Shown here: positions 3,679 to 20,828 of the stretch, piece by piece
Numbering within the stretch: position 1 is the first letter of the stretch
How the letters are laid out: each line of letters starts with the position of its first letter
From: Myxococcales bacterium
Lineage (GTDB): Bacteria; Myxococcota_A; Polyangia; Fen-1088
NCBI GenBank assembly: GCA_025350815.1
Contig: JANXXE010000051.1
Span: 37 to 64,036, forward strand
Length of the DNA stretch: 64,000 nt
Direction: 5' to 3'
Position numbers and translations under genes: made by a program
Notes under the pieces: generated by a model
The model's database searches: none
What the model was told of the DNA's origin: nothing
The model's input: only the letters and a program-made list of their open reading frames with translations

Positions 3679-6051
3679 ATGGATGGGGCAGCCTGGATCC
3701 GCAGCGTCGAAGACTCGAACGCGCAGGCCGAAAAGCGCGCGCGCCTGGCCGAGCTTTCTGCGTTCATGAACCTGGCGCACAGCCTGGAAGATCTTCTGCC
3801 GACGGCGCAGGCCCGCATCACGGAGTTCTTCGGGGCCGAACGTTCGACGATGTACGCGATCGATCCCGCCACAGACCAGTTCTATTCGATTGCCAAGACC
3901 GGGGCCGACATCAAGGAAATCCGCGTCCCGCGCGACACCACCAGCATCACCGGCTTCGTGGGTGTTTCGAAAGCGCCGGTCAATCTTCGCAACGTCTATG
4001 ACGCAGCCGAGCTGACGCGCGTCAGTCCCAAGCTGCGCTTCGACGATCGCTGGGACAAGGTCTCGGGCTTCAAGACGCGTTCGATGATGACGGTGCCCAT
4101 CCTGCGCGACAAGACCCTTCTGGGCGTCATCCAGGTCATCAACCGTCGGGACGGGTTGCCGTTCATGCCGCGCGACGTGGCCAATGCCGAAGAAGTGGCG
4201 CGCATGCTGGGGGGCGCGATAGCGACGCTGAATGCGAGGGCGGCCGGACCGAAGGCCGCGTCCTTCCCCGCCGTTCCGGTGGTGGCGGTGCCCCCGGCGT
4301 CAACACCCGTGGCGGCGAAAACGCCTGCCCGCGCGGGCAAATGGGATCTGTTGGTCGAATCCGGGGTAATCCCGCCCGACGCCCTGGCCAGGGGGCTGGC
4401 CACGGCCGCCGCCAGCGCCCTCGATCCCGCGCGCTATCTCGTCGAAAAGATGGGCATTAACCGCGTCGACGTGGAAAAGGCCCTGTCGCAGTTTCACGGC
4501 TGCGAGTTCTTCCGCTTCACTGGCAAGGAAACAATTCCCGAGGAACTGCGCAGTCGACTGCGCGTCGACTTTCTGAAGAAGATTTGTGCCGCGCCCATCG
4601 AACGCCGGGGTGCGCAGTTGGTGGTGGTTATCGACGATCCCGCCGACATTGATCGGACGGATGCCCTGCGCTTGCTGGACAGCGATCGGTCGTTGCTGAT
4701 TCAGGTGGGCTTTCGCGACGAGATCCTGGCCTGCATCGAACATTCCTACGGTCTGCGCGGCGACGTCGGCCTGATTTTGAAGGAACTGTCCACCGACGAA
4801 GGCACGGGCGCCATCGAGGAAACCGTCGTCGATGACGAAGGGCGGGGCGGCGAATCGGACAGCGCAGTCATCAAGCTGGCCAATCAGGTCATCATCGACG
4901 CCTACCGACGGGGCGCGTCCGACATTCACATCGAGCCGAACGGCAAGGAAGAAAACACCACCATCAGATTCCGCATCGACGGCGAGTGCGTGGCCTACCA
5001 GGACATTCCCCCGGCCTACCGCAATCCCCTGGTCGCCCGTTTCAAGATCATGTCGAAGCTGGATATCTCCGAGCGGCGCAAACCTCAGGACGGGAAGATT
5101 CGCTTTCGCATGCAGGACCGCCAGATCGAACTGCGCGTTGCCACCTTGCCGACGGTGAACGGCAACGAGGACGTGGTGATGCGCATCCTGGCGGCATCGA
5201 AGCCGTTGCCGCTGGCCGAAATGGGCATGAGCGAACGCAATCTGCGTGGCCTCAAGGAGATCGTCGCCAAGCCCTATGGCCTGGTGCTGTGTGTGGGGCC
5301 CACGGGCTCAGGCAAGACGACGACGCTGCATTCGGCACTGGGGCACATCAACACCGTCGACATGAAGATCTGGACGGCCGAAGATCCCGTCGAGATTACG
5401 CAGCCTGGCCTGCGGCAGGTGCAGGTGCAGGCGAAGATCGGCTTCGATTTTGCGACGGCGATGCGCGCGTTTCTGCGCGCCGATCCCGACGTCATCATGG
5501 TCGGCGAAATGCGAGACAAGGAAACCGCCAGCACCGGTATCGAGGCGTCGTTGACCGGCCATCTGGTGCTGTCCACCCTGCACACCAACAGCGCGCCCGA
5601 GACCATCACGCGGCTTATCGACATGGATCTTGATCCCTTCAGTTTTGCCGATGCGTTGCTGGGCGTGCTGGCGCAGCGGCTGGCGCGCGGGATCTGCAAG
5701 AAGTGCCGGCAGGAATACGTCGCCGACAAGGACGAGGTCACGGCCATCATCGAGGCCTTCGGTCCCGAACAGGCCGAGGCGCGGGGTTACCGTCTGGGTG
5801 AGGTGAAGCTGTTCCGCGGTGCGGGCTGCGAGACCTGCGGCAAGTCCGGCTACAAGGGCCGCGTCGCCCTGCACGAATTGCTGCTGAACAACGACGAGAT
5901 CAAGCACGCCATCACGCACCGGGCGCCGGTCGAACAGATCCGGCAGTTGGCGATGAAAGGCGGCATGACCACGCTGTTGCAAGATGGCATCGAGAAGGCG
6001 ATGGCGGGGAAGACCGACCTCAAACAGGTATTGGCGGTGTGCTCGCGATGA
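3679..6051 (+). CDS. GAF domain + GspE/PilB N-terminal domain + type II/IV secretion-system ATPase (PilB/GspE/MshE family)
   Basis: 790 aa. N-terminal GAF-like region; central T2SSE_N-like region; C-terminal ATPase with Walker A GPTGSGKTT, Asp/His boxes and a tetracysteine motif (CKKC...CETC). Confidence 0.88.
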   Translation: MDGAAWIRSVEDSNAQAEKRARLAELSAFMNLAHSLEDLLPTAQARITEFFGAERSTMYAIDPATDQFYSIAKTGADIKEIRVPRDTTSITGFVGVSKAPVNLRNVYDAAELTRVSPKLRFDDRWDKVSGFKTRSMMTVPILRDKTLLGVIQVINRRDGLPFMPRDVANAEEVARMLGGAIATLNARAAGPKAASFPAVPVVAVPPASTPVAAKTPARAGKWDLLVESGVIPPDALARGLATAAASALDPARYLVEKMGINRVDVEKALSQFHGCEFFRFTGKETIPEELRSRLRVDFLKKICAAPIERRGAQLVVVIDDPADIDRTDALRLLDSDRSLLIQVGFRDEILACIEHSYGLRGDVGLILKELSTDEGTGAIEETVVDDEGRGGESDSAVIKLANQVIIDAYRRGASDIHIEPNGKEENTTIRFRIDGECVAYQDIPPAYRNPLVARFKIMSKLDISERRKPQDGKIRFRMQDRQIELRVATLPTVNGNEDVVMRILAASKPLPLAEMGMSERNLRGLKEIVAKPYGLVLCVGPTGSGKTTTLHSALGHINTVDMKIWTAEDPVEITQPGLRQVQVQAKIGFDFATAMRAFLRADPDVIMVGEMRDKETASTGIEASLTGHLVLSTLHTNSAPETITRLIDMDLDPFSFADALLGVLAQRLARGICKKCRQEYVADKDEVTAIIEAFGPEQAEARGYRLGEVKLFRGAGCETCGKSGYKGRVALHELLLNNDEIKHAITHRAPVEQIRQLAMKGGMTTLLQDGIEKAMAGKTDLKQVLAVCSR

Positions 6052-6086: not shown

Positions 6087-8867
6087 GTGCAGGGAATGGA
6101 AGATTTCCCCCGCCGATTCGGGCCGTATGTCCTGATGAAGCCCCTGGCGCACGGGGGCATGGGCGCCCTGTGTCTGGCCGTGCATGGCTCGCGCGGGATG
6201 GAGAAGTTGTGCGTCGTCAAGACGGCGCTGCCGCACCTGCACGGCAGCAGCTACCTGCAGCGCTTCCGCGATGAGGCCAAGATCGTCGTTCGCCTGTCGC
6301 ACGGCAACCTGGTCGCCGTCTTCGACGCGGGTCAAGTGGACGGCGAGATCTTTCTGGCCATGGATTTTGTTGAGGGCAAGGATCTGCGCGCGGTGTGGAA
6401 CCGATGTGCGCAAAAGGGCATTGCCTTTCCCGTCGACGTCGCCGTGCACATCGCAAAAGAATTGGCGCGCGGGCTGGCCTATGCGCATTCCTTCGAGGGG
6501 CTTTCGCTGGTGCACCGGGATGTGTCGCCGCCCAATGTGCTTCTGTCCTACACGGGTGAAACCAAGCTGACCGATTTCGGCCTGGCGTCATCGACCCTGA
6601 AGCTGGAAAAGACCGCGCCGGGGGTCATCTACGGCAAGGTCAGCTACATGGCGCCCGAGCAGGCGCGCGGCGATGCCCTGGACGCGCGTGCCGATCTGTA
6701 CGGCGCCGGAATCATCCTGTGGGAATTGCTGACCGGGCGGCAGTTGTTCCCGTCGGCGGCCTCGCGGGGCGGCCCGGCCAGGCCCGAAGGACCGCCAGTC
6801 GACGACGATTTGCTGGACCGGGTGCGCGAGCCACAGGTGGTGGCGCCATCCCAGCGCGCCGCCCGGGTGCCGGCCGAGCTCGATCGCATAGTCCTGCGGG
6901 CCCTGGCGACCGCGCCGGGTGATCGCTACCAGACCGGCGAAGAATTTCGTTCTGACCTCGCTGCCTTCCAGGCCAAGACGGCGCCCTCCACGGATGGTGA
7001 CCATGTCGCGCGCTTTCTGCGCGGGCTATTCGGCGACGTCATCGACAAAGAACGCGCCGAAAGAACAGCCCTAGTGGTGGCGTCCGCACCTCTGCTCGGC
7101 TCGTCGTTGCCGCGGCCGGCGGAACGTCCCGCAAACGTGCCGCCGCCGATGCCCGGGACCAGTGCGTCGTCTTCGTCGTCCTCGGAAATGTTGGGCCCCG
7201 GCGATTCTCGCGACAAGACCAAGGCCGAGGTGGTGCGCGACGAGCCATCGGAGATCGTGGGTAACGTTCTGGCCGGTCGATACAAGATCAAGCGGCTGTC
7301 CGGCGAGGGGGGCATGGGCCGTGTCTATGAGGCCGAACACATCGAGATCGGCAAGCGCGTTGCCGTCAAGGTTCTGCATCCCGCCTACTGCCGCATGCCC
7401 GAGGTCGTCGAACGCTTCAGGCGCGAGGCGCGGGCCGCCTCGAAGATTGGGCATCCCAACATCGTCAACGTGACCGACTCGGGCACGACCGACGACGGAT
7501 CGTTCTTCTTCGTGATGGAATACATCGAGGGCGTCGAGGTCGGCCTGGTCATCCACAGGGAGGGGCCTCTGCCCGTCATGCGCGCGTTGCACATCACGCA
7601 GCAGATGTGTTTGGCGCTGAAGGCGGCGCACGAGGCGGGCGTCATCCACCGCGACTTGAAGCCCGAGAACGTGCTGCTGGTCGCCGGCGAAAGTGAGAAG
7701 GACTTCGTCAAGGTGCTGGATTTCGGCATCGCCAAGAGCGCCGACGTCGAGGAGACGGCGAAGTCCGGGCGTCGTCTGACCCGTCCGGGGGTCGCGATGG
7801 GCACGCCGGAATACATGGCGCCCGAGCAAGCGGCGGGCAAACCGGCCGACCCGCGATCGGATATCTACGCGGTCGGTTCGATCCTGTACGAGATGCTGAC
7901 CAGCGTTCCCCCCTACGACGGGGACAACGTCATGGAGGTCTTGCACAAGAAGGCGAACGAAGCTCCGAGGCCCCTGCGCGAGTTGCGCCCCGACGTCCCG
8001 GAAGGTGTTGAGGAGTTGGTGATCCGCGCGATGGCCCGCTCGCCTGCGGATCGCCCGCAGTCGATGGCGGATCTGGCGCGCGACATTCAGGCCATGATGA
8101 CGACGCTTGACGATGGCCTTGGTCTGGTGCCGCCAGCGCCACCCCGCCGACAGACCGAGATCGTTGCTGCGCGCGTACCGCCCAGTTCCGGTCTAAGGGC
8201 GCTCGGGCTGTCGCGCCGAACCGTGGCCATCGCGGGTGCGCTGTTGATGAGCCTGGGCGTCGTGGTGATTATTCGTGGTGCCACCGCTTCCCGACCGGCG
8301 CCGCGGGTTGCGGGGGCGTCGAATGTCCCTGTCAAGCGGGCGGCGACGGCAGGTCCCAGGGCGGCCGCCCGCCCGGCCGCACCAATGGCTGTGACCGTGG
8401 TGCCCGCCCAGCCTAGCGAAGAGCCGGCCGCGGTGGAACCTGCGCCAGCGAGGCGGGTCGATTTGAAGGCGGGGCGGGGCAAGGCGTCAGCGGCGCGGGG
8501 GCTGTCGCCGGATGCCGCCAATCGATTGATCGCCACTGGCAACCAGCAACTGGCGCTTCGGCACTACGACGAGGCCGGCGCGACGTTCACGGGGCTTCTG
8601 GGCAGCAAGCGGGACCACGGCCGGGCGGCTCTGGGCCTGGCGCAGGTGGCGTTTCAACAAAAGCGTTACACCGAGATGGCCCGCCGGGCGAAGGAAGCGG
8701 TGGGGGCGGGCGAAGGCGTTCCGGCGCTGGTCTTGTTGGGCGACGCCCACTACAAGTTGAGGAACTACAAGGACGCCGTGAAGGTGTACGACGAGGCCCT
8801 GAGGCGCGCCCCGGGCAACGCGGGGGCCCAGAAGGGTTTGCAGGCGGCCAGGCGCGGCCTCGACTGA
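6087..8867 (+). CDS. tandem (two-kinase-domain) Ser/Thr protein kinase with TM segment and C-terminal TPR region
   Basis: 926 aa. Domain 1 has [15 protein letters not shown] (catalytic-loop Lys replaced), DFG and APE. Domain 2 is canonical ([14 protein letters not shown]). A hydrophobic segment [16 protein letters not shown] and TPR-like repeats lie at the C-terminus. Confidence 0.9.
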
Positions 8868-8931
8868 AGCCGGCGCTCGCGGGGCAGGCACGCCGGGCCG
8901 TCCCGTTGTAAACTGCGTTGTTCGCGGCGCC

Positions 8932-11733
8932 ATGACCGGACGCTACCCTCGACGTTTCGGCAAGTACGTCCTCCTCAAGCCGTTGGCGAAGGGGGGAATG
9001 GGTGAGATCTACCTGGCGGCAGGGGGCGAGATCGGCGGCTTCGAAAAGCTGTGCGTGATCAAGAAGGTCCTCACCGAGAAGGCCGACAAGACCAAGGCCA
9101 ACCGTTTCCTCGATGAAGCCAAGGTGGTGCTGCGGCTGTCCCACTCGGCGCTGGTGACCACCTTCGACGCCGGCGAGGTCGACGGCGAGTTCTACATCGC
9201 CATGGAGCTGGTCGAGGGCAAGGATCTGCGCGAGGTGTGGAACCGCTGCGTGCGGACCCGGCAGCGTATCCCCCTGGATGTGGCATTGCATGTGGTGCGC
9301 GAGGTGGCGCGGGCGCTGGCCTACGTACACGCCTACGGCGATCTGAAACTGGTGCACCGGGATGTGGCGCCGCCGAACATCTTGCTGGCCTATGTCGGCG
9401 ACGTAAAGCTGACCGATTTTGGTTTGGCCCGCAGCGTTCTCAAGCAGGAACATACCGCCCCTGGCGTCGTGTTCGGCCGGGCGGCGTATCTTGCGCCCGA
9501 ACAGGCCCGCGGCGAGGTGGCTGACGCGCGCACGGACGTTTACACCCTCGGCATCGTGCTGTGGGAGCTGCTGACCGGACAGCAGTTCTTGCAGCTATCG
9601 GGACTGGATCCGGCGGCGGCCCTGGCCATTGTGCGGCACCCGAAGATTGCCCCGCCGTCCTCGCGCGCGCCGTGGATTTCCCCCGCGCTGGATCAGGTGG
9701 TGATGCGCGCACTGACGCCCGATCGCGACGCCCGCTACTCGTCCGCCGAGGAAATGCGGCAGGGATTGGCCGACGTGATGTCGGACATAGCGCCGCGCGG
9801 GGATTCGGCGCGCGTGGCGGAATTCTTGCGCGGGATTTATAGCGAAACCATCGAGGAAGAACGCGCCGAGCGCGACCATTATCTGAAGGACGAGATCCCC
9901 AAGTTTCGCGCCGCTCTGGTGGCCCCGGAACGCACATCATTGGTTGGTGCGGAGGCTGCGCTGGCGGCAATCTCCGACGAGGATTCGGCCCCCTCGGCGC
10001 CCGGTGCGGCCGGACAGCCGATCACCATCAGTGGTCCGGTCGGATCCCCCCCGGCACTCCCAGTCGCCAGTCCAGCGTCGGCGCCCCGCCCCCGAGTCGG
10101 ACGTTCCTGGACCTCGCCTCGCTTGCCCGGCTTGCCGCCGTCGATCGTCCAGCCGCGCGACGGGATCTCCCACGCTGACCCTTCCGCCGCATCGGCGCCC
10201 CCGGCAACGTCGGTGCCCGCAGGCCCCTCCCCTCGATTGTCGTTTGGCGGCACGCCCGCGCGGCCGGTCGCGGCCGCAACCAATGTTCGTCTGACGCCCC
10301 GGGCGGGGGCGCCCGTCGTCGCGGCACGTACGTCGCTGGACGCTGAACGATCGCCGGTCGTCCCGGCGCCCGTCGTCGAGGAATCGCCCCCTGCCGAGGC
10401 GCGCATCATCGCGGGCCGCTATCGGGTGGTCGGCACGCTGGGCGAGGGGAGTCTCGGGATCGTGTACGCCGTCAAGCAGTCCGACGGCGGCCAGGATCTG
10501 TCCTTGCGTGTGATGGCCCGCAGCCGTTCATTCGACGGGCCGCTGGCGGATCGCTGGCGCCGTGAGGTGCGCGCGGTTTCGTCACTCGGACATCCGCACT
10601 CGGTCCTGGTGCACGACCTTGGGATCACCGAAGACGGCGCCTCGTACGTCGCGATGGATCCTTTGTCGGGCATGGACCTGGCGACCTATGTCGCGCGCGA
10701 GCAGCGTCTCGATCCCGTGCTGGCCCTCAAGATCGTGACGCCGCTGTGCCAGGTGCTGGGGGCGGCGCACGCCGCCGGGGTGGCCCACGGGGCCCTGCGG
10801 CCCGAAAGTATCTTCCTCGCGCCGCGGGGCAAATCCGTCGACGCGGTCAAGCTGATCGATTTCGGGCTCGCGGCTGCGCTGACCAAGGATCTGGTGCCCC
10901 GGCGACTGACGCCGGAGTCATTGCCGGCCAATGTCGTCGAGTACCTCGCGCCCGAACAGCTGGCCGGCCAGGCCCCTGATGTGCTGTCGGATGTCTTCGG
11001 CGTCGGTGTGATCTTGTACGAAATGCTGACGGGCGCGCCGCCACACGCGGGCTCCGGCGATCTGGTCGGGCGGCGCAGCCAGGAGGCGCCGCAGTCGCCG
11101 CGCATGTTTCGCCCCGACATTTCCGAGCCCCTTGAACGTCTCACGCTGGCGATGCTCGACCGCGACCGGACCCGTCGTCCACGTTCGATGGCCGACGTCG
11201 AGACCGCGCTGGTCGGCCTGGCGGTGCCGGGGGTCCGGCCAGCGACTGGGGCGGACCCCGCCGGCTCCGATCTCGTGGTCGGCGCTGAAGAGCGCAGCCA
11301 GCGCCGGGTGACCCGCGACGCGGCCTTTCGCGCCATCGCCGATTTGTCCGCCGAGCCTCCGGCCGCGTTGCCCGCCCTGCTGGCACCGAGGACGGCGCCT
11401 GAAGTGGTGTTCGGTGTCCCCGTCGACGAGACGGCCACGACCGACCCCGAAATCCCCACGCTGCCGGCGTCTGCCTTGCGGCCGTCGGCTGCCCAAACCT
11501 CGTCGAGTTCGATCCCGGCCCGGATACCCGGGGGCGGCATGCTCGCGCGCTACGGCGCTGGGTCTGCAAGAAAACAGACCTCGCCCATCTCCGGCGCCGT
11601 GGTCCAGGTGGGGGGCGGCCTGGCCGTCGTCGGTCTGCTGCTGTTGCTGCTGCTGACCGATACATTCTCCTGCCGCGATCGCTCGGCCGCTTCGAAACCA
11701 TCAGCCAAGACCGCGACGACCAAGAAGCCGTGA
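8932..11733 (+). CDS. tandem-kinase-domain Ser/Thr protein kinase paralog; second domain is a predicted pseudokinase
   Basis: 933 aa. Domain 1 aligns by eye with domain 1 of the upstream kinase (HRDVAPPN, DFG, APE). Domain 2 has HGALRPES in place of HRD and retains DFG. Long Pro/Ala/Ser linker, then a C-terminal poly-Leu TM segment. Confidence 0.9.
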   Translation: MTGRYPRRFGKYVLLKPLAKGGMGEIYLAAGGEIGGFEKLCVIKKVLTEKADKTKANRFLDEAKVVLRLSHSALVTTFDAGEVDGEFYIAMELVEGKDLREVWNRCVRTRQRIPLDVALHVVREVARALAYVHAYGDLKLVHRDVAPPNILLAYVGDVKLTDFGLARSVLKQEHTAPGVVFGRAAYLAPEQARGEVADARTDVYTLGIVLWELLTGQQFLQLSGLDPAAALAIVRHPKIAPPSSRAPWISPALDQVVMRALTPDRDARYSSAEEMRQGLADVMSDIAPRGDSARVAEFLRGIYSETIEEERAERDHYLKDEIPKFRAALVAPERTSLVGAEAALAAISDEDSAPSAPGAAGQPITISGPVGSPPALPVASPASAPRPRVGRSWTSPRLPGLPPSIVQPRDGISHADPSAASAPPATSVPAGPSPRLSFGGTPARPVAAATNVRLTPRAGAPVVAARTSLDAERSPVVPAPVVEESPPAEARIIAGRYRVVGTLGEGSLGIVYAVKQSDGGQDLSLRVMARSRSFDGPLADRWRREVRAVSSLGHPHSVLVHDLGITEDGASYVAMDPLSGMDLATYVAREQRLDPVLALKIVTPLCQVLGAAHAAGVAHGALRPESIFLAPRGKSVDAVKLIDFGLAAALTKDLVPRRLTPESLPANVVEYLAPEQLAGQAPDVLSDVFGVGVILYEMLTGAPPHAGSGDLVGRRSQEAPQSPRMFRPDISEPLERLTLAMLDRDRTRRPRSMADVETALVGLAVPGVRPATGADPAGSDLVVGAEERSQRRVTRDAAFRAIADLSAEPPAALPALLAPRTAPEVVFGVPVDETATTDPEIPTLPASALRPSAAQTSSSSIPARIPGGGMLARYGAGSARKQTSPISGAVVQVGGGLAVVGLLLLLLLTDTFSCRDRSAASKPSAKTATTKKP

Positions 11734-16784: not shown

Positions 16785-18626
16785 GTGCCAACGGCACGTC
16801 GCCCTGATGTGTTCTTAGCGTCAGGGCGGACCTACACTAAACTGATCACATCCATGGCCGATCCTCGCACCGAAGGCATTTTTACCTCCTTGCGAGCCGC
16901 CGCGCGCGTGACCCACGACCGGTTTCTCGTCGGCGTCTCGGACGAGCGCGATCGAAAGCGCATCACCGCGGCGCTGGGTCTCGAGGGGTTGGTTGTCGAG
17001 CTCACCTCGACGCATGAGGCGCTGGATCGCCTGGCAGAGGAATCCTTCGAGTTGCTGGTCCTGGACGTCGATGAGGTGCGCGGCGCGCGCGATCCCCTGC
17101 CGGCCAGTCGCGAACTGCGGCCGTTTGCCGACCTGGTGGCGATTTTGGACAGCGATCCGATGCGTTGCAGTCAAGCGTTTGCCGGCGAGGTTGCGGCCGT
17201 CCTGCCACGGCCCTTGCCTCCGAACGACGCCCTGTTGCGCGCCCATCTGCGGTGGCTGGCGGCCTGTCGCCGATCGCGCACGCGCGGGTTGTTGCTGGGC
17301 AGTGCCCTGGCCCGCCACCGCGAGGACCTTCGCGCCGTAGAGCCCGCACTGGAAAGTGCCTTGTCAGAGATCCTGGCCGAGGCGGCGTTCGAGCCGACGG
17401 TCATGGTGATGGGCGACGCTGAACTTCTGCGCGTCGTCGGGGGCCGCCCCACCCACGCGGCGCCCGACGTTGTCGTGGTGGGTCTGGGGCAGGTCGACAA
17501 TCTGGAAGCGCGGCTGCAAGAGGCGCGGGCCCGAGCCGCCGGCGCGGCCCTGGTGGTGGTTGACGGTGCCGCGACGCCCGAGCGCCTGCGCGCGGCGATT
17601 TACGGAGGGGCGCGTGCCTATCTCGACCGCGGGAGGCTTGAGGATCTTGGGCGCGTTGTGGCGTTCGGTGCCATGCGCCGCCGGGCCGAAGTCAGCGGTC
17701 GGCGTCAGGTCGAAACGCTGGCACGTTTTGGTGTGCTCGATGAAAACGAGGGCACGACGCCCGCGCCGCCGAAGGATCTGGATGCCCGGCTGATAGCCGA
17801 CGCCACCGCCAGCGGCGGGCCGTTCGTTCCCTCCGGGCACGAGGTTCTGGTGGTTGACGACGAAGTGGTGGTCTTAACCGTCCTGCGCGAGGCCTTGCGC
17901 CGGGGTGGCTATCGCGTCACGACGGCGGCCTCGGCCGAGGAAGCCATCGATCTGATGAGGAAGCGGCCGTTTGATCTCGTACTGACGGACAAGAACCTTC
18001 CCGGCGCCTCGGGGCTCGAGGTCTTGCGGGCCTCCCGTCTGCTCGACCCGCCCCCTGCGGTTGTGCTCATCACGGGCTATTCGTCGTACGACTCGGCCGT
18101 CGAGGCCATGGACATTGGCGCGCACGACTACATCGAAAAACCGATCCGCGACGTCGAGAATCTGCGCTTTCGCATCCGTCGGGCCCTGTCCCGCCGCGAC
18201 CAGCAACTGGCGCGTAATAAGGCATCGCCCCCGGTGGGCGGCGCCAACGGGCGTGTTCTGGTGGTCGAGCTCGAAAGCAGCCGCCGGCAGTTGATCGCCG
18301 AGTTTTTGGGTCGCACCTACGACGTGACCGCCGCCGCCGATGGCGATGAAGCCCTGCGGTTGCTCCAGCTGGAACGCTACGACGTCGTGCTGGCCGACAG
18401 AAACTTGCCCGGGATGTCCGGTTTGCGCGTCATCGAACAGGCGCAGCGCCTGTTGCCGCATTGTGCGTCGGTGCTGTACACGGTCTATCCCTCGTATGAG
18501 ACCGTCAAGGAGGCGTTCGAACTGGGCGTCGACGCGTTCTTGGTTCGTCCCAGCGAGGACCTGAAGAACCTGGCCGAGAAGGTCGCAGGCGCCTTGCGCA
18601 GCCGCGGCGGTATTCTGCTCGGCTGA
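16785..18626 (+). CDS. multi-receiver-domain response regulator (three REC-like domains, no output domain)
   Basis: 613 aa. Canonical REC at roughly aa 355-470 (VLVVDDE...LTDKNLPG...DYIEKP). A second REC at roughly aa 485-600 has a degenerate acidic pocket (VVELESS). The N-terminal REC-like region is degenerate. Confidence 0.75.
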   Translation: MPTARRPDVFLASGRTYTKLITSMADPRTEGIFTSLRAAARVTHDRFLVGVSDERDRKRITAALGLEGLVVELTSTHEALDRLAEESFELLVLDVDEVRGARDPLPASRELRPFADLVAILDSDPMRCSQAFAGEVAAVLPRPLPPNDALLRAHLRWLAACRRSRTRGLLLGSALARHREDLRAVEPALESALSEILAEAAFEPTVMVMGDAELLRVVGGRPTHAAPDVVVVGLGQVDNLEARLQEARARAAGAALVVVDGAATPERLRAAIYGGARAYLDRGRLEDLGRVVAFGAMRRRAEVSGRRQVETLARFGVLDENEGTTPAPPKDLDARLIADATASGGPFVPSGHEVLVVDDEVVVLTVLREALRRGGYRVTTAASAEEAIDLMRKRPFDLVLTDKNLPGASGLEVLRASRLLDPPPAVVLITGYSSYDSAVEAMDIGAHDYIEKPIRDVENLRFRIRRALSRRDQQLARNKASPPVGGANGRVLVVELESSRRQLIAEFLGRTYDVTAAADGDEALRLLQLERYDVVLADRNLPGMSGLRVIEQAQRLLPHCASVLYTVYPSYETVKEAFELGVDAFLVRPSEDLKNLAEKVAGALRSRGGILLG

Positions 18627-18647: not shown

Positions 18648-20828
18648 TTGTACACTCGGGTCCTTCCAAACTTGAAAATTGCATTCACGCACAACCTCCA
18701 GCTGACAGACAGCGAGGACGAAGCCGAGTTTGACACAGTCGAAACCGTCGATGCCGTGGCCGATGGGTTGCGCGCGGGTGGTCACGAGGTCGAGAAGATT
18801 GAGGTCACCGGGCCGGCGTCGCACCTGGCCGCGCGCATCGAATCCTTCGCGCCGGATCTGATCTTCAACACGGCCGAAGGGCGCCGCGGACGCACGCGCG
18901 AGGCTTTTTACCCCGCGCTGTTCGAGGAACTGGGCTTCCCCTACACGGGTTCTGACGCCTACGTCCTGACGGTGACGCTGGACAAGTGGCTGACCAAGCT
19001 GATCTTGTCCGCCCAGGGCGTCGACACGCCGCGGGCCCGCTTGGTGGTTCCGGACGATCGGCGTCTGCGTGATCTCGGGGCCGTGGGTCTCGGCTATCCG
19101 GTCATCGTCAAACCTAATTACGAGGGCTCGTCGAAGGGCATCGGCGATGACGCCGTCGCGCGCGATCCCCGTGCGCTGGCCGAGATGCTGCCGCGGGCGC
19201 TGCGCAAGTATCCGGCGGGTGTGCTGCTGGAAGAATTCATCCCCGGCACGGACGTGACGGTGCCCTTCGTCGAAGGCCTCGGCGACGAGGGCGTGCTGTT
19301 GCCCGTCGACTACGTCTACGAGCCGGGCGCGCGCAGCCGCTTCAACATCTACGACTACCGCCTGAAGTCTGCTGAATCGAACCGCGTTTCCGTGCGCTGC
19401 CCGCCTGATCTGCCGCGCGATGTGGTGGCCCGCCTGCGCGCGCTGTCCAAACTGGCCATCCGGACTTTGGGTGTCCGGGATCTGGGTCGCATAGATTTTC
19501 GCGTCGGCGAAGACGGCCGCATCTTTTTGCTGGAGGTGAACGCGCTGCCGTCCCTGGAACGTGGGGCCAGCACGTTTGCTGCCGCCGCGCGCGAGGGTCT
19601 CGACTACGAAGCGGCGCTTGGCAGCATCGTTTCCAGTGCCGCGCGCCGCCAGGGTTTGCTGGTTCCCGCGGGCGTGCGGCGCCGGCGTCCGCCCGAACCT
19701 CTGCGCATTGGATTCACCTACAACGTCAAGCGGGTTGACTCGAAGGCGGGCAACGACGCCGAGGCCGAATACGACGCGCCCGAGACCATCGATTCGATTC
19801 GCGAGGCGATCGAGAGCCACGGGCACATCGTCCTGCCGCTGGAGGCCACGGCCGAGCTACCCCGACAGTTCACGGAGCAGCCTGTTGATCTGGTCTTCAA
19901 CATCGCCGAGGGCGTTTCGGGCCGCAACCGTGAGGCCGCCGTGCCCGCCCTGTGCGAGCTGATGGGCATCCCTTACACCGGCTCGGACGCGGCCACGTTG
20001 TCCATTGCCCTCGACAAGGCGCTGTCGAAACGCGTCCTGCGGCAGCACGGCATTCTGACGCCCGAGTTCCAGGTGATGGAATCCGGCCGCGAACGACTGT
20101 CGTCCAAGCTGAAGTTCCCCCTTATCGTGAAGCCCAATCAGGAAGGGTCCTCCAAGGGGGTCAGCGCCAGCGCCTCCGTGGTCGACGACGAGGAAGGCCT
20201 GCGGGCCGTGGTGCGGGAGCTGCTTGAGCGTTACCGGCAGCCGGCGCTGGTCGAGGACTATATCGCCGGCCGGGAATTCACCGTCGGCCTGCTGGGCGAC
20301 AAGCGCCCGCGCGTTTTGCCGCCGATGGAGATCCTGTTCAAGGACACCAGCAATCTGCGACCCGTTTACGACTACCAGATCAAGCAGGAATGGGAGAAGC
20401 ACGTCTACTACCAGTGTCCCGCCAAACTTTCGCCCGCCGAGCTCAAGGCCATCGAGCGGGTGGCGCGCGAGACCTTCTTGGCGCTCGCTTGTCGGGACGT
20501 GGCGCGCGTCGATCTGCGCATGGACGCCGCGGGCGAGCTGTGGGTCCTCGAGGTCAATCCCCTGCCGGGTCTGACGCCGGGCTATTCCGATCTGTGTCTG
20601 ATAGCCAACGCCGCCAACATCGACTACCGCTCGCTAATAGGCGAGATCATGGCCGGGGGGCTCAAGCGTCTGCGTGAGAAGCGTCGGGCCGAGGCCAGGC
20701 CCCCGGCCGCACCCACCCCCACCGCCTTTTCCCACGCCCCCGTGGCGGCCCACCCGGCCCCGGCCGCCGCCGCAAGCGCAACCGCCGAGGTTGCCGCCGT
20801 TCCGTCCGCCACCCTGACGCCGCCGTAG
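18648..20828 (+). CDS. tandem D-alanine--D-alanine-ligase-family ATP-grasp protein (two complete Ddl-like modules in one polypeptide)
   Basis: 726 aa. Each half has a Ddl N-domain followed by an ATP-grasp domain (VIVKPNYEGSSKGIG and LIVKPNQEGSSKGVS). The halves are mutually similar. Confidence 0.8.
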   Translation: MYTRVLPNLKIAFTHNLQLTDSEDEAEFDTVETVDAVADGLRAGGHEVEKIEVTGPASHLAARIESFAPDLIFNTAEGRRGRTREAFYPALFEELGFPYTGSDAYVLTVTLDKWLTKLILSAQGVDTPRARLVVPDDRRLRDLGAVGLGYPVIVKPNYEGSSKGIGDDAVARDPRALAEMLPRALRKYPAGVLLEEFIPGTDVTVPFVEGLGDEGVLLPVDYVYEPGARSRFNIYDYRLKSAESNRVSVRCPPDLPRDVVARLRALSKLAIRTLGVRDLGRIDFRVGEDGRIFLLEVNALPSLERGASTFAAAAREGLDYEAALGSIVSSAARRQGLLVPAGVRRRRPPEPLRIGFTYNVKRVDSKAGNDAEAEYDAPETIDSIREAIESHGHIVLPLEATAELPRQFTEQPVDLVFNIAEGVSGRNREAAVPALCELMGIPYTGSDAATLSIALDKALSKRVLRQHGILTPEFQVMESGRERLSSKLKFPLIVKPNQEGSSKGVSASASVVDDEEGLRAVVRELLERYRQPALVEDYIAGREFTVGLLGDKRPRVLPPMEILFKDTSNLRPVYDYQIKQEWEKHVYYQCPAKLSPAELKAIERVARETFLALACRDVARVDLRMDAAGELWVLEVNPLPGLTPGYSDLCLIANAANIDYRSLIGEIMAGGLKRLREKRRAEARPPAAPTPTAFSHAPVAAHPAPAAAASATAEVAAVPSATLTPP

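Follow-up and report, generated by a model that had tools for sequence, protein, structure and literature searches.

Two adjacent genes in a 64,000-nucleotide stretch of DNA (the window) each encode a protein with two kinase domains, and are here named K1 and K2, with D1 and D2 denoting the first and second kinase domain of each product. The window is part of a GC-rich (~65%) contig (JANXXE010000051.1) from an uncultured Polyangia-type Myxococcota bacterium. In both D1 domains the lysine of the catalytic loop is replaced by a small residue, and a lysine or arginine occupies the position of the threonine in the P+1 loop, a reciprocal exchange that recurs in a large group of related kinases. We consider it somewhat probable that the two proteins are paralogues from an ancient duplication of a tandem-kinase receptor anchored in the membrane, that their D1 functions as a kinase whose catalytic lysine has been relocated, and that K2 is the copy being reduced.

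The K1 product is organized as an atypical D1, an S/P-rich linker, a canonical D2, a transmembrane (TM) helix, an A/P-rich linker, and a TPR region, with two Pkinase stretches (Pfam PF00069; E 1.6e-80, 270.8 bits for the whole protein against a cut-off of 31.7). Motifs were placed by alignment with M. tuberculosis PknB together with hidden Markov model (HMM) alignment, and the K1 features are as follows, with residue numbers referring to amino acids (aa).

6087..8867, + strand: K1, 926 aa; GTG start, with an ATG three codons later as a possible alternative
6096..7070, + strand: K1-D1, aa 4–328, swap-type kinase domain (HMM and PknB alignments, AlphaFold2)
6513..6536, + strand: K1-D1 catalytic loop HRDVSPPN, aa 143–150, with Ser147 at the PKA K168 / PknB K140 position
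6630..6659, + strand: K1-D1 P+1 loop, aa 182–191, with Lys184 at the position of the 'GT' Thr (PKA T201, PknB T179)
6996..7073, + strand: K1-D1 C-terminal helical extension (..ERAERTAL), aa 304–329, a helix in the AlphaFold2 model and conserved between K1 and K2
7248..8132, + strand: K1-D2, aa 388–682, canonical Ser/Thr kinase domain with HRDLKPEN
8217..8288, + strand: K1 TM helix, aa 711–734 (Kyte-Doolittle scan, 19-residue mean 2.24)
8493..8840, + strand: K1 TPR region, aa 803–918 (Pfam TPR_16, TPR_2, TPR_14)

K1-D1 further has the G-loop AHGGMG, beta3 Lys45 (CVVK), alphaC Glu63, DFG at residues 163–165, an activation-loop threonine (Thr176, in EKTAPG), and APE, and its P+1 sequence is GKVSYMAPE. 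K1-D2 pairs a catalytic-loop Lys with a P+1 Thr, and is the sole canonical active site among the four domains. The TPR region is predicted to be periplasmic, because it lies after the single TM helix. K1 also scores 519 bits against the NCBIfam model NF033483 (Stk1 family PASTA domain-containing Ser/Thr kinase; cut-off 450), matching model positions 2–271 of 563; no PASTA domain was found in K1 using Pfam, and the cut-off is exceeded only because the score is summed over two kinase domains. Tandem kinases such as K1 could thus be mistaken for PASTA kinases in automated annotation.

The K2 product is organized as an atypical D1, a P/A-rich linker, a putative pseudokinase D2, and a TM helix, and it too has two PF00069 stretches (E 2.3e-68, 230.9 bits for the whole protein against the cut-off of 31.7).

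8932..11733, + strand: K2, open reading frame of 933 aa, tail-anchored tandem kinase paralogue
8941..9879, + strand: K2-D1, aa 4–316, swap-type kinase with the other catalytic residues intact
9355–9378, + strand: K2-D1 catalytic loop HRDVAPPN, aa 142–149, with Ala146 at the loop-Lys position
9472–9501, + strand: K2-D1 P+1 loop FGRAAYLAPE, with Arg183 at the 'GT' Thr position
9880..10398, + strand: K2 inter-domain linker, aa 317–489, low complexity (A 20%, P 19%, S 12%)
10399..11280, + strand: K2-D2, aa 490–783, predicted pseudokinase
10786–10809, + strand: K2-D2 loop HGALRPES, aa 619–626, with HRD changed to HGA, the loop Lys to Arg, and the Asn to Ser
11587..11676, + strand: K2 C-terminal TM helix and tail anchor, aa 886–915, followed by an 18-residue tail

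K2-D1 keeps the beta3 Lys (CVIK), alphaC Glu, HRD Asp, loop Asn, DFG, and APE, and the catalytic core (beta3 Lys, alphaC Glu, HRD Asp, loop Asn, and DFG Asp) is complete in K1-D1, K1-D2, and K2-D1. In K2-D2 the beta3 Lys is replaced by Arg (SLRVM) and the P+1 'GT' is gone, with DFG and APE retained. By the usual definition, which considers the VAIK Lys, the HRD Asp, and the DFG Asp, K2-D2 is a pseudokinase, two of the three being gone; K1-D1 and K2-D1 fall outside this definition, with all three present. A preliminary description of this DNA, made without database searches, had reported two open reading frames at these positions with two kinase domains each, paralogous N-terminal domains that carry HRDVSPPN and HRDVAPPN and keep DFG and APE, a canonical second domain in the first protein, and a second domain without HRD in the second; the Pfam, PknB, and HMM alignments agree with it on each of these, and the beta3 substitution in K2-D2, unmentioned there, can be added. 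It had also described the C-terminal modules as TPR in one protein and a Pro-rich linker plus TM helix in the other. The K1 TPR and K2 TM helix stand, but K1 has a TM helix of its own, which had been missed, and the Pro-rich stretch is the linker between D1 and D2 of K2.

The two departures in D1 are coupled. K1-D1 was searched against 1.84 billion cluster representatives (50% identity), and the active-site columns were extracted from the 285 kinase domains of the 142 best new proteins. HRDxSPxN is present in ~115 of these domains and variants with A, T, N, or C in ~50, and the residue at the catalytic-loop Lys position predicts that at the 'GT' position of the P+1 loop. When the loop residue is Lys, the P+1 residue is Thr or Ser in 100 of 100 domains; when it is Ser, the P+1 residue is Lys in 87, Arg in 12, and Thr in 2 (basic in 99 of 101). 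Loop Ala is accompanied by Arg (16) or His (3), loop Thr by Lys (8), Arg (1), Thr (2), or Asn (1), loop Asn by Lys (6), and loop Cys by Arg (3). The pairing is without exception at 80 loci in Myxococcota metagenome-assembled genomes (MAGs), which constitute the set of K1 orthologues discussed below, with K/T in 103 of 103, S/K in 81 of 81, and A/R in 36 of 36 loop/P+1 pairs. The window conforms, with Ser147 and Lys184 in K1-D1, Ala146 and Arg183 in K2-D1, and Lys and Thr in K1-D2; the alignment of the P+1 residue is not in doubt, because its spacing to APE is identical in all of these domains.

The swap-type domains form a distinct and essentially monophyletic subfamily of Hanks kinases. A phylogeny of the HRDVxPPN subfamily, as the preliminary description had proposed, places 143 of 144 swap domains inside one clade of 153 in a neighbour-joining tree. 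Two K/T domains within this clade (P0227 and P0192) could be read as reversions, and were not counted as independent evidence since they are near the base on long branches. The swap domains have additional signatures, including a change of PknB R58 to D (before the alphaC Glu), of A142 to P, S, or Q (before the loop Asn), and of Y207 to W (in the alphaF-region 'ILWELLTG'), and in 131 of 142 the beta3 Lys, alphaC Glu, loop Asn, and DFG are all present. An activation-loop Thr is conserved both in D1 (E[KH]T[AQ]PG) and in D2 (RLTxPG), and D1 is an RD kinase. A motif related to the D1 C-terminal helix is found only after swap-type domains (39 of 79 in K1, 16 of 36 in K2, and none of 103 K-type domains). 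The tree and the orthologue counts thus show that HRDV[S/A]PPN is not the local oddity for which it had been taken, nor a sign of decay, but the mark of a large subfamily; a loop that proved to be a common active variant with no functional consequence had been named as grounds for refutation, and the loop is indeed widespread, which goes much of the way towards this as far as its commonness is concerned.

Two kinase domains are present in 108 of the 142 representatives, and the commonest arrangements are S-K (53), S-S (11), A-K (10), and K-S (4), where letters denote the catalytic-loop residue of each domain; representatives were ranked by whole-protein score, which favours multi-domain proteins, and these counts are not unbiased frequencies. 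Six of the proteins (P0152, P0160, P0180, P0209, P0215, and P0235) are 1,500–2,600 aa in length with four to six kinase-like domains per chain, of which several are degenerate and the canonical ones usually C-terminal; these giants would be bacterial multi-kinase arrays. We tentatively propose that a large clade of bacterial Hanks-type kinases, K1-D1 and K2-D1 among them, has shifted the lysine of its catalytic loop into the P+1 loop (the K168–T201 exchange in PKA numbering), that its domains serve as the outputs of Myxococcota receptors with two to six kinases, and that these receptors work as intramolecular cascades. The exchange, which the preliminary description had not noticed, has good support from the sequences, but the proposed mechanism is unproven.

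The identities between domains indicate what was duplicated. The D1 domains of K1 and K2 are 51% identical and the D2 domains 37%, and because both values exceed those between D1 and D2 (31–34%), the duplicated unit was a whole gene already containing two kinase domains; the duplication is ancient. K1 orthologues are present at all 80 loci with the layout D1-D2(-TM-TPR), and tandem-kinase receptors of this type seem to be widespread in Polyangia-type Myxococcota. K1 is stable, with HRD[VI]SPPN in 79 of the 80 orthologues and HRDLKPEN in 74 of 76 D2 domains. K2 orthologues, with HRD[VI]APPN, are located downstream of K1, adjoining it or within ~4 kb, at 35 of the 80 loci, and a further one is present in L068 beside a K1 with a non-standard D1 loop, for a total of 36; all 36 have both HRD[VI]APPN and the P+1 Arg.

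K2 is far more variable beyond D1. Among the 36 orthologues, D2 is canonical (HRDLKPEN) in 17, degenerate in 2, absent in 15, and cut by a contig edge in 2. The three with a canonical D2 that were checked by Pfam all also have a TPR after the TM helix, as in K1, and K2 started out laid out like K1, with an atypical kinase followed by a canonical one, a TM helix, and a TPR region. The two degenerate D2 domains are in L001 (HGGLRPES) and L006 (shortened), with the window as a third case, and the 15 D1-only orthologues are soluble proteins of 352–484 aa. In one sub-lineage (L012, L013, L014, L015, L042, L076, and others) we note a soluble D1-only K2 of ~430 aa that starts 15 nucleotides after K1 or overlaps it, and so occurs naturally as a swap-type kinase standing alone. 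The replacement of the beta3 Lys by Arg, of HRD by HG., and of the loop Lys by Arg are common to the window K2-D2, L001/P0163, P0159 (HGDVRPER), and P0169 (HGTLRPDN), and from these shared derived states the pseudokinase has a single origin, within one sub-lineage, where the domain has since stayed intact. Compared with its closest relative, L001, the window has only 50% identity in K2-D2, versus 89% in K2-D1 and 79–82% in the K1 domains, and K2-D1 identities among the K2 orthologues are 70–89%; D2 of K2 evolves fast, and D1 is the conserved core of the protein.

The K2 orthologues can be arranged as a reductive series, from a full A-K-TM-TPR protein, through loss of the TPR, to a pseudokinase D2, and finally to D1 only. 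The C-terminal modules of K1 and K2 differ because K2 lost its TPR, and not because the two were built differently. The earlier proposal of a duplicated tandem-kinase module is borne out by the domain identities, but its description as subfunctionalising is not, and reductive evolution of K2 is a better fit to the series.

An AlphaFold2 (AF2) model of K1-D1, built from a 41-sequence alignment, has a confident kinase fold (mean predicted local distance difference test score [pLDDT] 83.8, predicted template modelling score 0.87). The block at residues 304–329 is a helix with pLDDT of 89–98, and matches a segment conserved between K1 and K2 (K2 aa ~295–320, ..ARFLRGLF....ERAER..). The nearest solved folds found by Foldseek are the bacterial PknI, Stk1, PknA, and PknB, and the longest alignments are to CaMKII and CASK, probably because of this extra C-terminal helix. 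Both CaMKII and CASK have a regulatory helix after the kinase domain, and it is possible from the model that the D1 helix is autoinhibitory or serves in docking. No solved structure with the exchange was found, as the matches to a catalytic-loop-to-APE query and to the sequence top out at canonical K/T kinases.

With every other catalytic residue in place, D1 is probably active as a kinase, its basic residue having been relocated, and the loop variant suggests that the active site has been rewired and not impaired. In PKA, K168 touches the gamma-phosphate, and the hydroxyl of T201 hydrogen-bonds with D166 and K168. From PKA structures, a Lys at position 201 would therefore be long enough to reach the site of the K168 amine, and such reach by Lys or Arg would require a small residue at position 168; those observed are S, A, T, N, C, or G. 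The P+1 Lys of K1-D1 and Arg of K2-D1 may thus reach back into the active site and take over the phosphate-stabilising role. As the swapped residue lines the pocket for the phospho-acceptor, the substrate selectivity of D1 may be altered too, and a changed substrate preference is likely.

In the receptor that we envisage, K1 would be organized in the style of PknB: its TPR region would act as a sensor in the periplasm, joined by the single TM helix to the canonical D2 close to the membrane, with D1 at the N-terminus tethered by the flexible S/P-rich linker. The sensor and TM helix would drive dimerisation and autophosphorylation of D2, D2 would phosphorylate the activation-loop Thr of the RD-type D1, and D1 in turn would phosphorylate downstream targets. 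K2 would have lost its TPR in the lineage of the window, with its D2 turning into a fast-evolving pseudokinase that at most binds or scaffolds, leaving D1 as the working end.

Several points weigh against this reading. The exchange is essentially confined to one clade, so the covariation reflects few independent events, and instead of compensating for catalysis it could be a historical accident combined with a change in specificity. In a few members (S/T in 2 and T/T in 2) both positions are without a basic residue. The activation segment of the AF2 model is of low confidence, with pLDDT below 50 at residues 167–182. The linkers are long and of low complexity, and therefore no fixed interface between D1 and D2 can be assumed, and the order of activation from D2 to D1, while plausible, is drawn purely by analogy. 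We found neither a characterised protein with the exchange nor any family member with biochemical or structural data.

An alternative is that D1 binds nucleotide but is catalytically silent, and scaffolds or controls D2 in the manner of JAK JH2, with the P+1 Lys or Arg contributing to binding; we regard this as unlikely, though deserving of consideration. The phosphate-stabilising Lys of the catalytic loop is absent from every member, the first glycine of the G-loop is Ala, and the swap domains are nearly always fused to a canonical kinase, as in the S-K and A-K proteins that account for 53 and 10 of the 142 representatives. Such dependence on a canonical partner does not extend to the 11 S-S tandems, the 17 stand-alone S- or A-type representatives, or the 15 D1-only K2 orthologues, which are difficult to square with a role that is regulatory alone. 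Moreover, 131 of 142 domains have kept their HRD Asp, loop Asn, DFG Asp, beta3 Lys, and alphaC Glu across deep divergence, and the real pseudokinase of the family, K2-D2, sheds these residues quickly. K2-D2 thus acts as an internal control, and with the other catalytic residues under purifying selection a dead D1 appears to fit less well than a relocated lysine.

A second alternative, which we consider rather improbable on its own, is that D1 is active and that the exchange chiefly re-tunes its target (Tyr or dual, acidic or primed, or a non-protein substrate), the P+1 Lys or Arg being a specificity determinant. The residues corresponding to K168 and T201 are classical discriminators of Ser/Thr and Tyr kinases, with DLKPEN in the former and DLAARN or DLRAAN in the latter (PMC2887360), and the Ala that replaces the loop Lys in K2-D1 recalls HRDLAARN. 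From established structural knowledge of kinases, the swapped residue lines the acceptor pocket. However, the Tyr-kinase signature is otherwise missing: there is no Arg at loop position +2, with Pro-Pro in K2-D1 instead of Ala-Arg, and neither P+1 loop (GKVSYMAPE, GRAAYLAPE) has the PxxW motif. The near-absolute need for a basic residue when the loop Lys is gone is also a better fit to charge compensation. A change in specificity is compatible with a relocated catalytic lysine, and the two are not mutually exclusive.

It is very improbable that the genes constitute an anti-phage defence kinase module similar to PD-T4-6, Mad6 of MADS, or PglW. There are strong matches to the PADLOC PD-T4-6 and mad6 kinase models, and matches to NCBIfam MAD6 and PglW, but these span the generic kinase domain only, and the NCBIfam scores of K1 and K2 are well below the cut-offs (268 and 234 versus 460 for MAD6; 137 and 129 versus 990 for PglW). 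There are no partner defence genes, the neighbours being Tex, RNase R, BamB-like, and SCP2 genes, and the locus is syntenic across a class-level clade. That a frameshift, or a sequencing or assembly artefact, accounts for the two-domain architecture or the pseudokinase can be dismissed, since 80 orthologous loci share the layout, the exact K2 protein, pseudokinase included, is also present on an independently assembled contig (Logan SRR23617167), and four diverged sequences share the pseudokinase signature; nothing was found in favour of an artefact, beyond the contig having been assembled from a metagenome.

Among known systems, the closest are receptors of the PknB/Stk1 type (M. tuberculosis PknB, PknA, and PknI, and S. 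aureus Stk1), which are the best sequence and fold matches for D1. The similarities to PknB include a cytoplasmic kinase, a single TM helix, and an extracytoplasmic sensor, an activation-loop Thr that aligns with PknB T171, and the 'RF' motif of alphaC; the differences are two kinase domains per chain, a TPR sensor rather than PASTA, and a D1 that lacks K140 and has Lys or Arg for T179. The relocation is reminiscent of WNK, where an 'invariant' lysine is likewise gone from its usual motif, the shell of the active site conserves a lysine at another place, and other residues are intact. The WNK relocation, which has been proven structurally, is from beta3 K72 to beta2, whereas here it would be from the K168 equivalent to the P+1 loop, with covariation as the evidence and no homology beyond the kinase fold. 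RIO (HxDLSEYN) and Bud32 (HGDLTTSN) have Ser or Thr at the loop-Lys position, as does K1-D1 with its Ser, yet hydrolyse or transfer phosphate. Unlike these, which are without an activation segment, APE, and P+1 loop, D1 has all three and scores as a standard Pkinase, and the scores against the Bud32 NCBIfam models are 57 and 54 bits versus a cut-off of 125.

The tandem architecture has parallels in eukaryotes. RSK and MSK likewise hold two full kinase domains from separate subfamilies on one chain, with a flexible linker between them; both domains are active and are switched on in sequence, which offers a plausible precedent for activation within the chain. The AGC domain at the N-terminus of RSK is activated by the CaMK-like domain at its C-terminus, via a hydrophobic motif and PDK1. 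The window proteins would be of independent origin, are membrane-anchored, and have nothing resembling the hydrophobic motif and PDK1 route. K2, in pairing a probably active domain with a pseudokinase, resembles JAK JH2-JH1, GCN2, obscurin/SPEG, and the plant tandem kinases (WTK, Pm57, Gb3), and the literature on plant tandem kinase proteins describes kinase duplication or fusion followed by degeneration. In contrast to these, K2 is bacterial and membrane-anchored, and its D2 derives recently, and in a restricted lineage, from a canonical domain, and is absent from sister lineages.

The myxobacterial eukaryotic-like kinases (ELKs) and the Myxo1 family are similar in their presence in Myxococcota, a TM or TPR C-terminus, and tandem gene duplicates (bioRxiv 2025.01.12.632604; PMC11032199). 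The main text of an atlas of ~300,000 bacterial Ser/Thr kinases describes two Myxococcota families, including Myxo1 with TM or TPR, and single-kinase architectures, and in that main text neither tandem kinase domains nor a loop-Lys/P+1 swap is mentioned (bioRxiv 2025.01.12.632604). A 2025 review of bacterial pseudokinases does not cover the HRDVxPPN loop or tandem kinases, and according to Treuner-Lange 2010 the loop Lys is present in 'the majority' of myxobacterial ELKs, which was taken as a sign of Ser/Thr specificity. A literature search on HRDVSP, HRDVAP, and HRDISP, bacterial tandem kinases, and K168/T201 yielded nothing relevant, though Perez et al. 2008 (PNAS, myxobacterial kinome), which lay outside the search, could list two-kinase ELKs. 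M. xanthus MasK, a reported Tyr kinase connected with type IV pili, might be a swap-type relative, which would suit the PilB-like ATPase encoded upstream of K1; the MasABK paper is without motif information.

The K1 and K2 genes are located on ordinary chromosome. The locus is syntenic rather than on a variable island. Upstream are Tex and an ATPase gene, and downstream, on the opposite strand, are genes for an SCP2 protein, RNase R, and a BamB-like propeller (all Pfam).

3679..6051, + strand: GAF-MshEN-T2SSE (PilB/GspE-like) ATPase (Pfam), ending 35 nucleotides 5' of K1

MshEN is a c-di-GMP-binding module in other proteins. Because the gaps between the ATPase and K1 (35 nucleotides) and K1 and K2 (64 nucleotides) have no terminator-like site that we could find, the three genes may be co-transcribed. 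A functional link between the ATPase and the kinases was considered and rejected, since a same-strand ATPase adjoins K1 at only 14 of the 63 loci whose upstream sequence extends for 2.5 kb or more; the adjacency is regarded as lineage-specific and the ATPase as lying outside the module; linkage to RNase R, BamB-like, and SCP2 genes across the loci is broader.

Elsewhere in the window, we note a 613-aa protein with two receiver-domain matches (16785–18626, + strand; Pfam) and, directly after it, a 726-aa protein (18648–20828, + strand) in which two stretches match the C-terminal domain of D-Ala-D-Ala ligase and several other matches are to ATP-grasp, suggestive of a duplicated ligase. The AT skew is strongly negative (-0.22 to -0.30) at 34–40 kb and 44–46 kb, and the GC content falls to 0.59–0.61 at 50–54 kb, compared with ~0.65–0.70 elsewhere in the window. 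All three regions contain long + strand open reading frames, and the genes there are possibly compositionally unusual or acquired.

The catalytic-loop Lys and the P+1 'GT' Thr are textbook near-invariant residues, used to call both the specificity of a kinase and its 'deadness'. The swap clade warns that motif-based pseudokinase calls can mislead, and provides a natural experiment on the plasticity of the kinase active site; if the relocation is true, it would be the second natural case of a relocated 'invariant' kinase lysine, after WNK. RSK, JAK, and plant resistance proteins are the most familiar examples of the tandem-kinase architecture, which this family shows to be common in a bacterial phylum as well, and the K2 series, from two active domains to a kinase and pseudokinase and then to a single domain, could show how pseudokinases arise and when they become dispensable.

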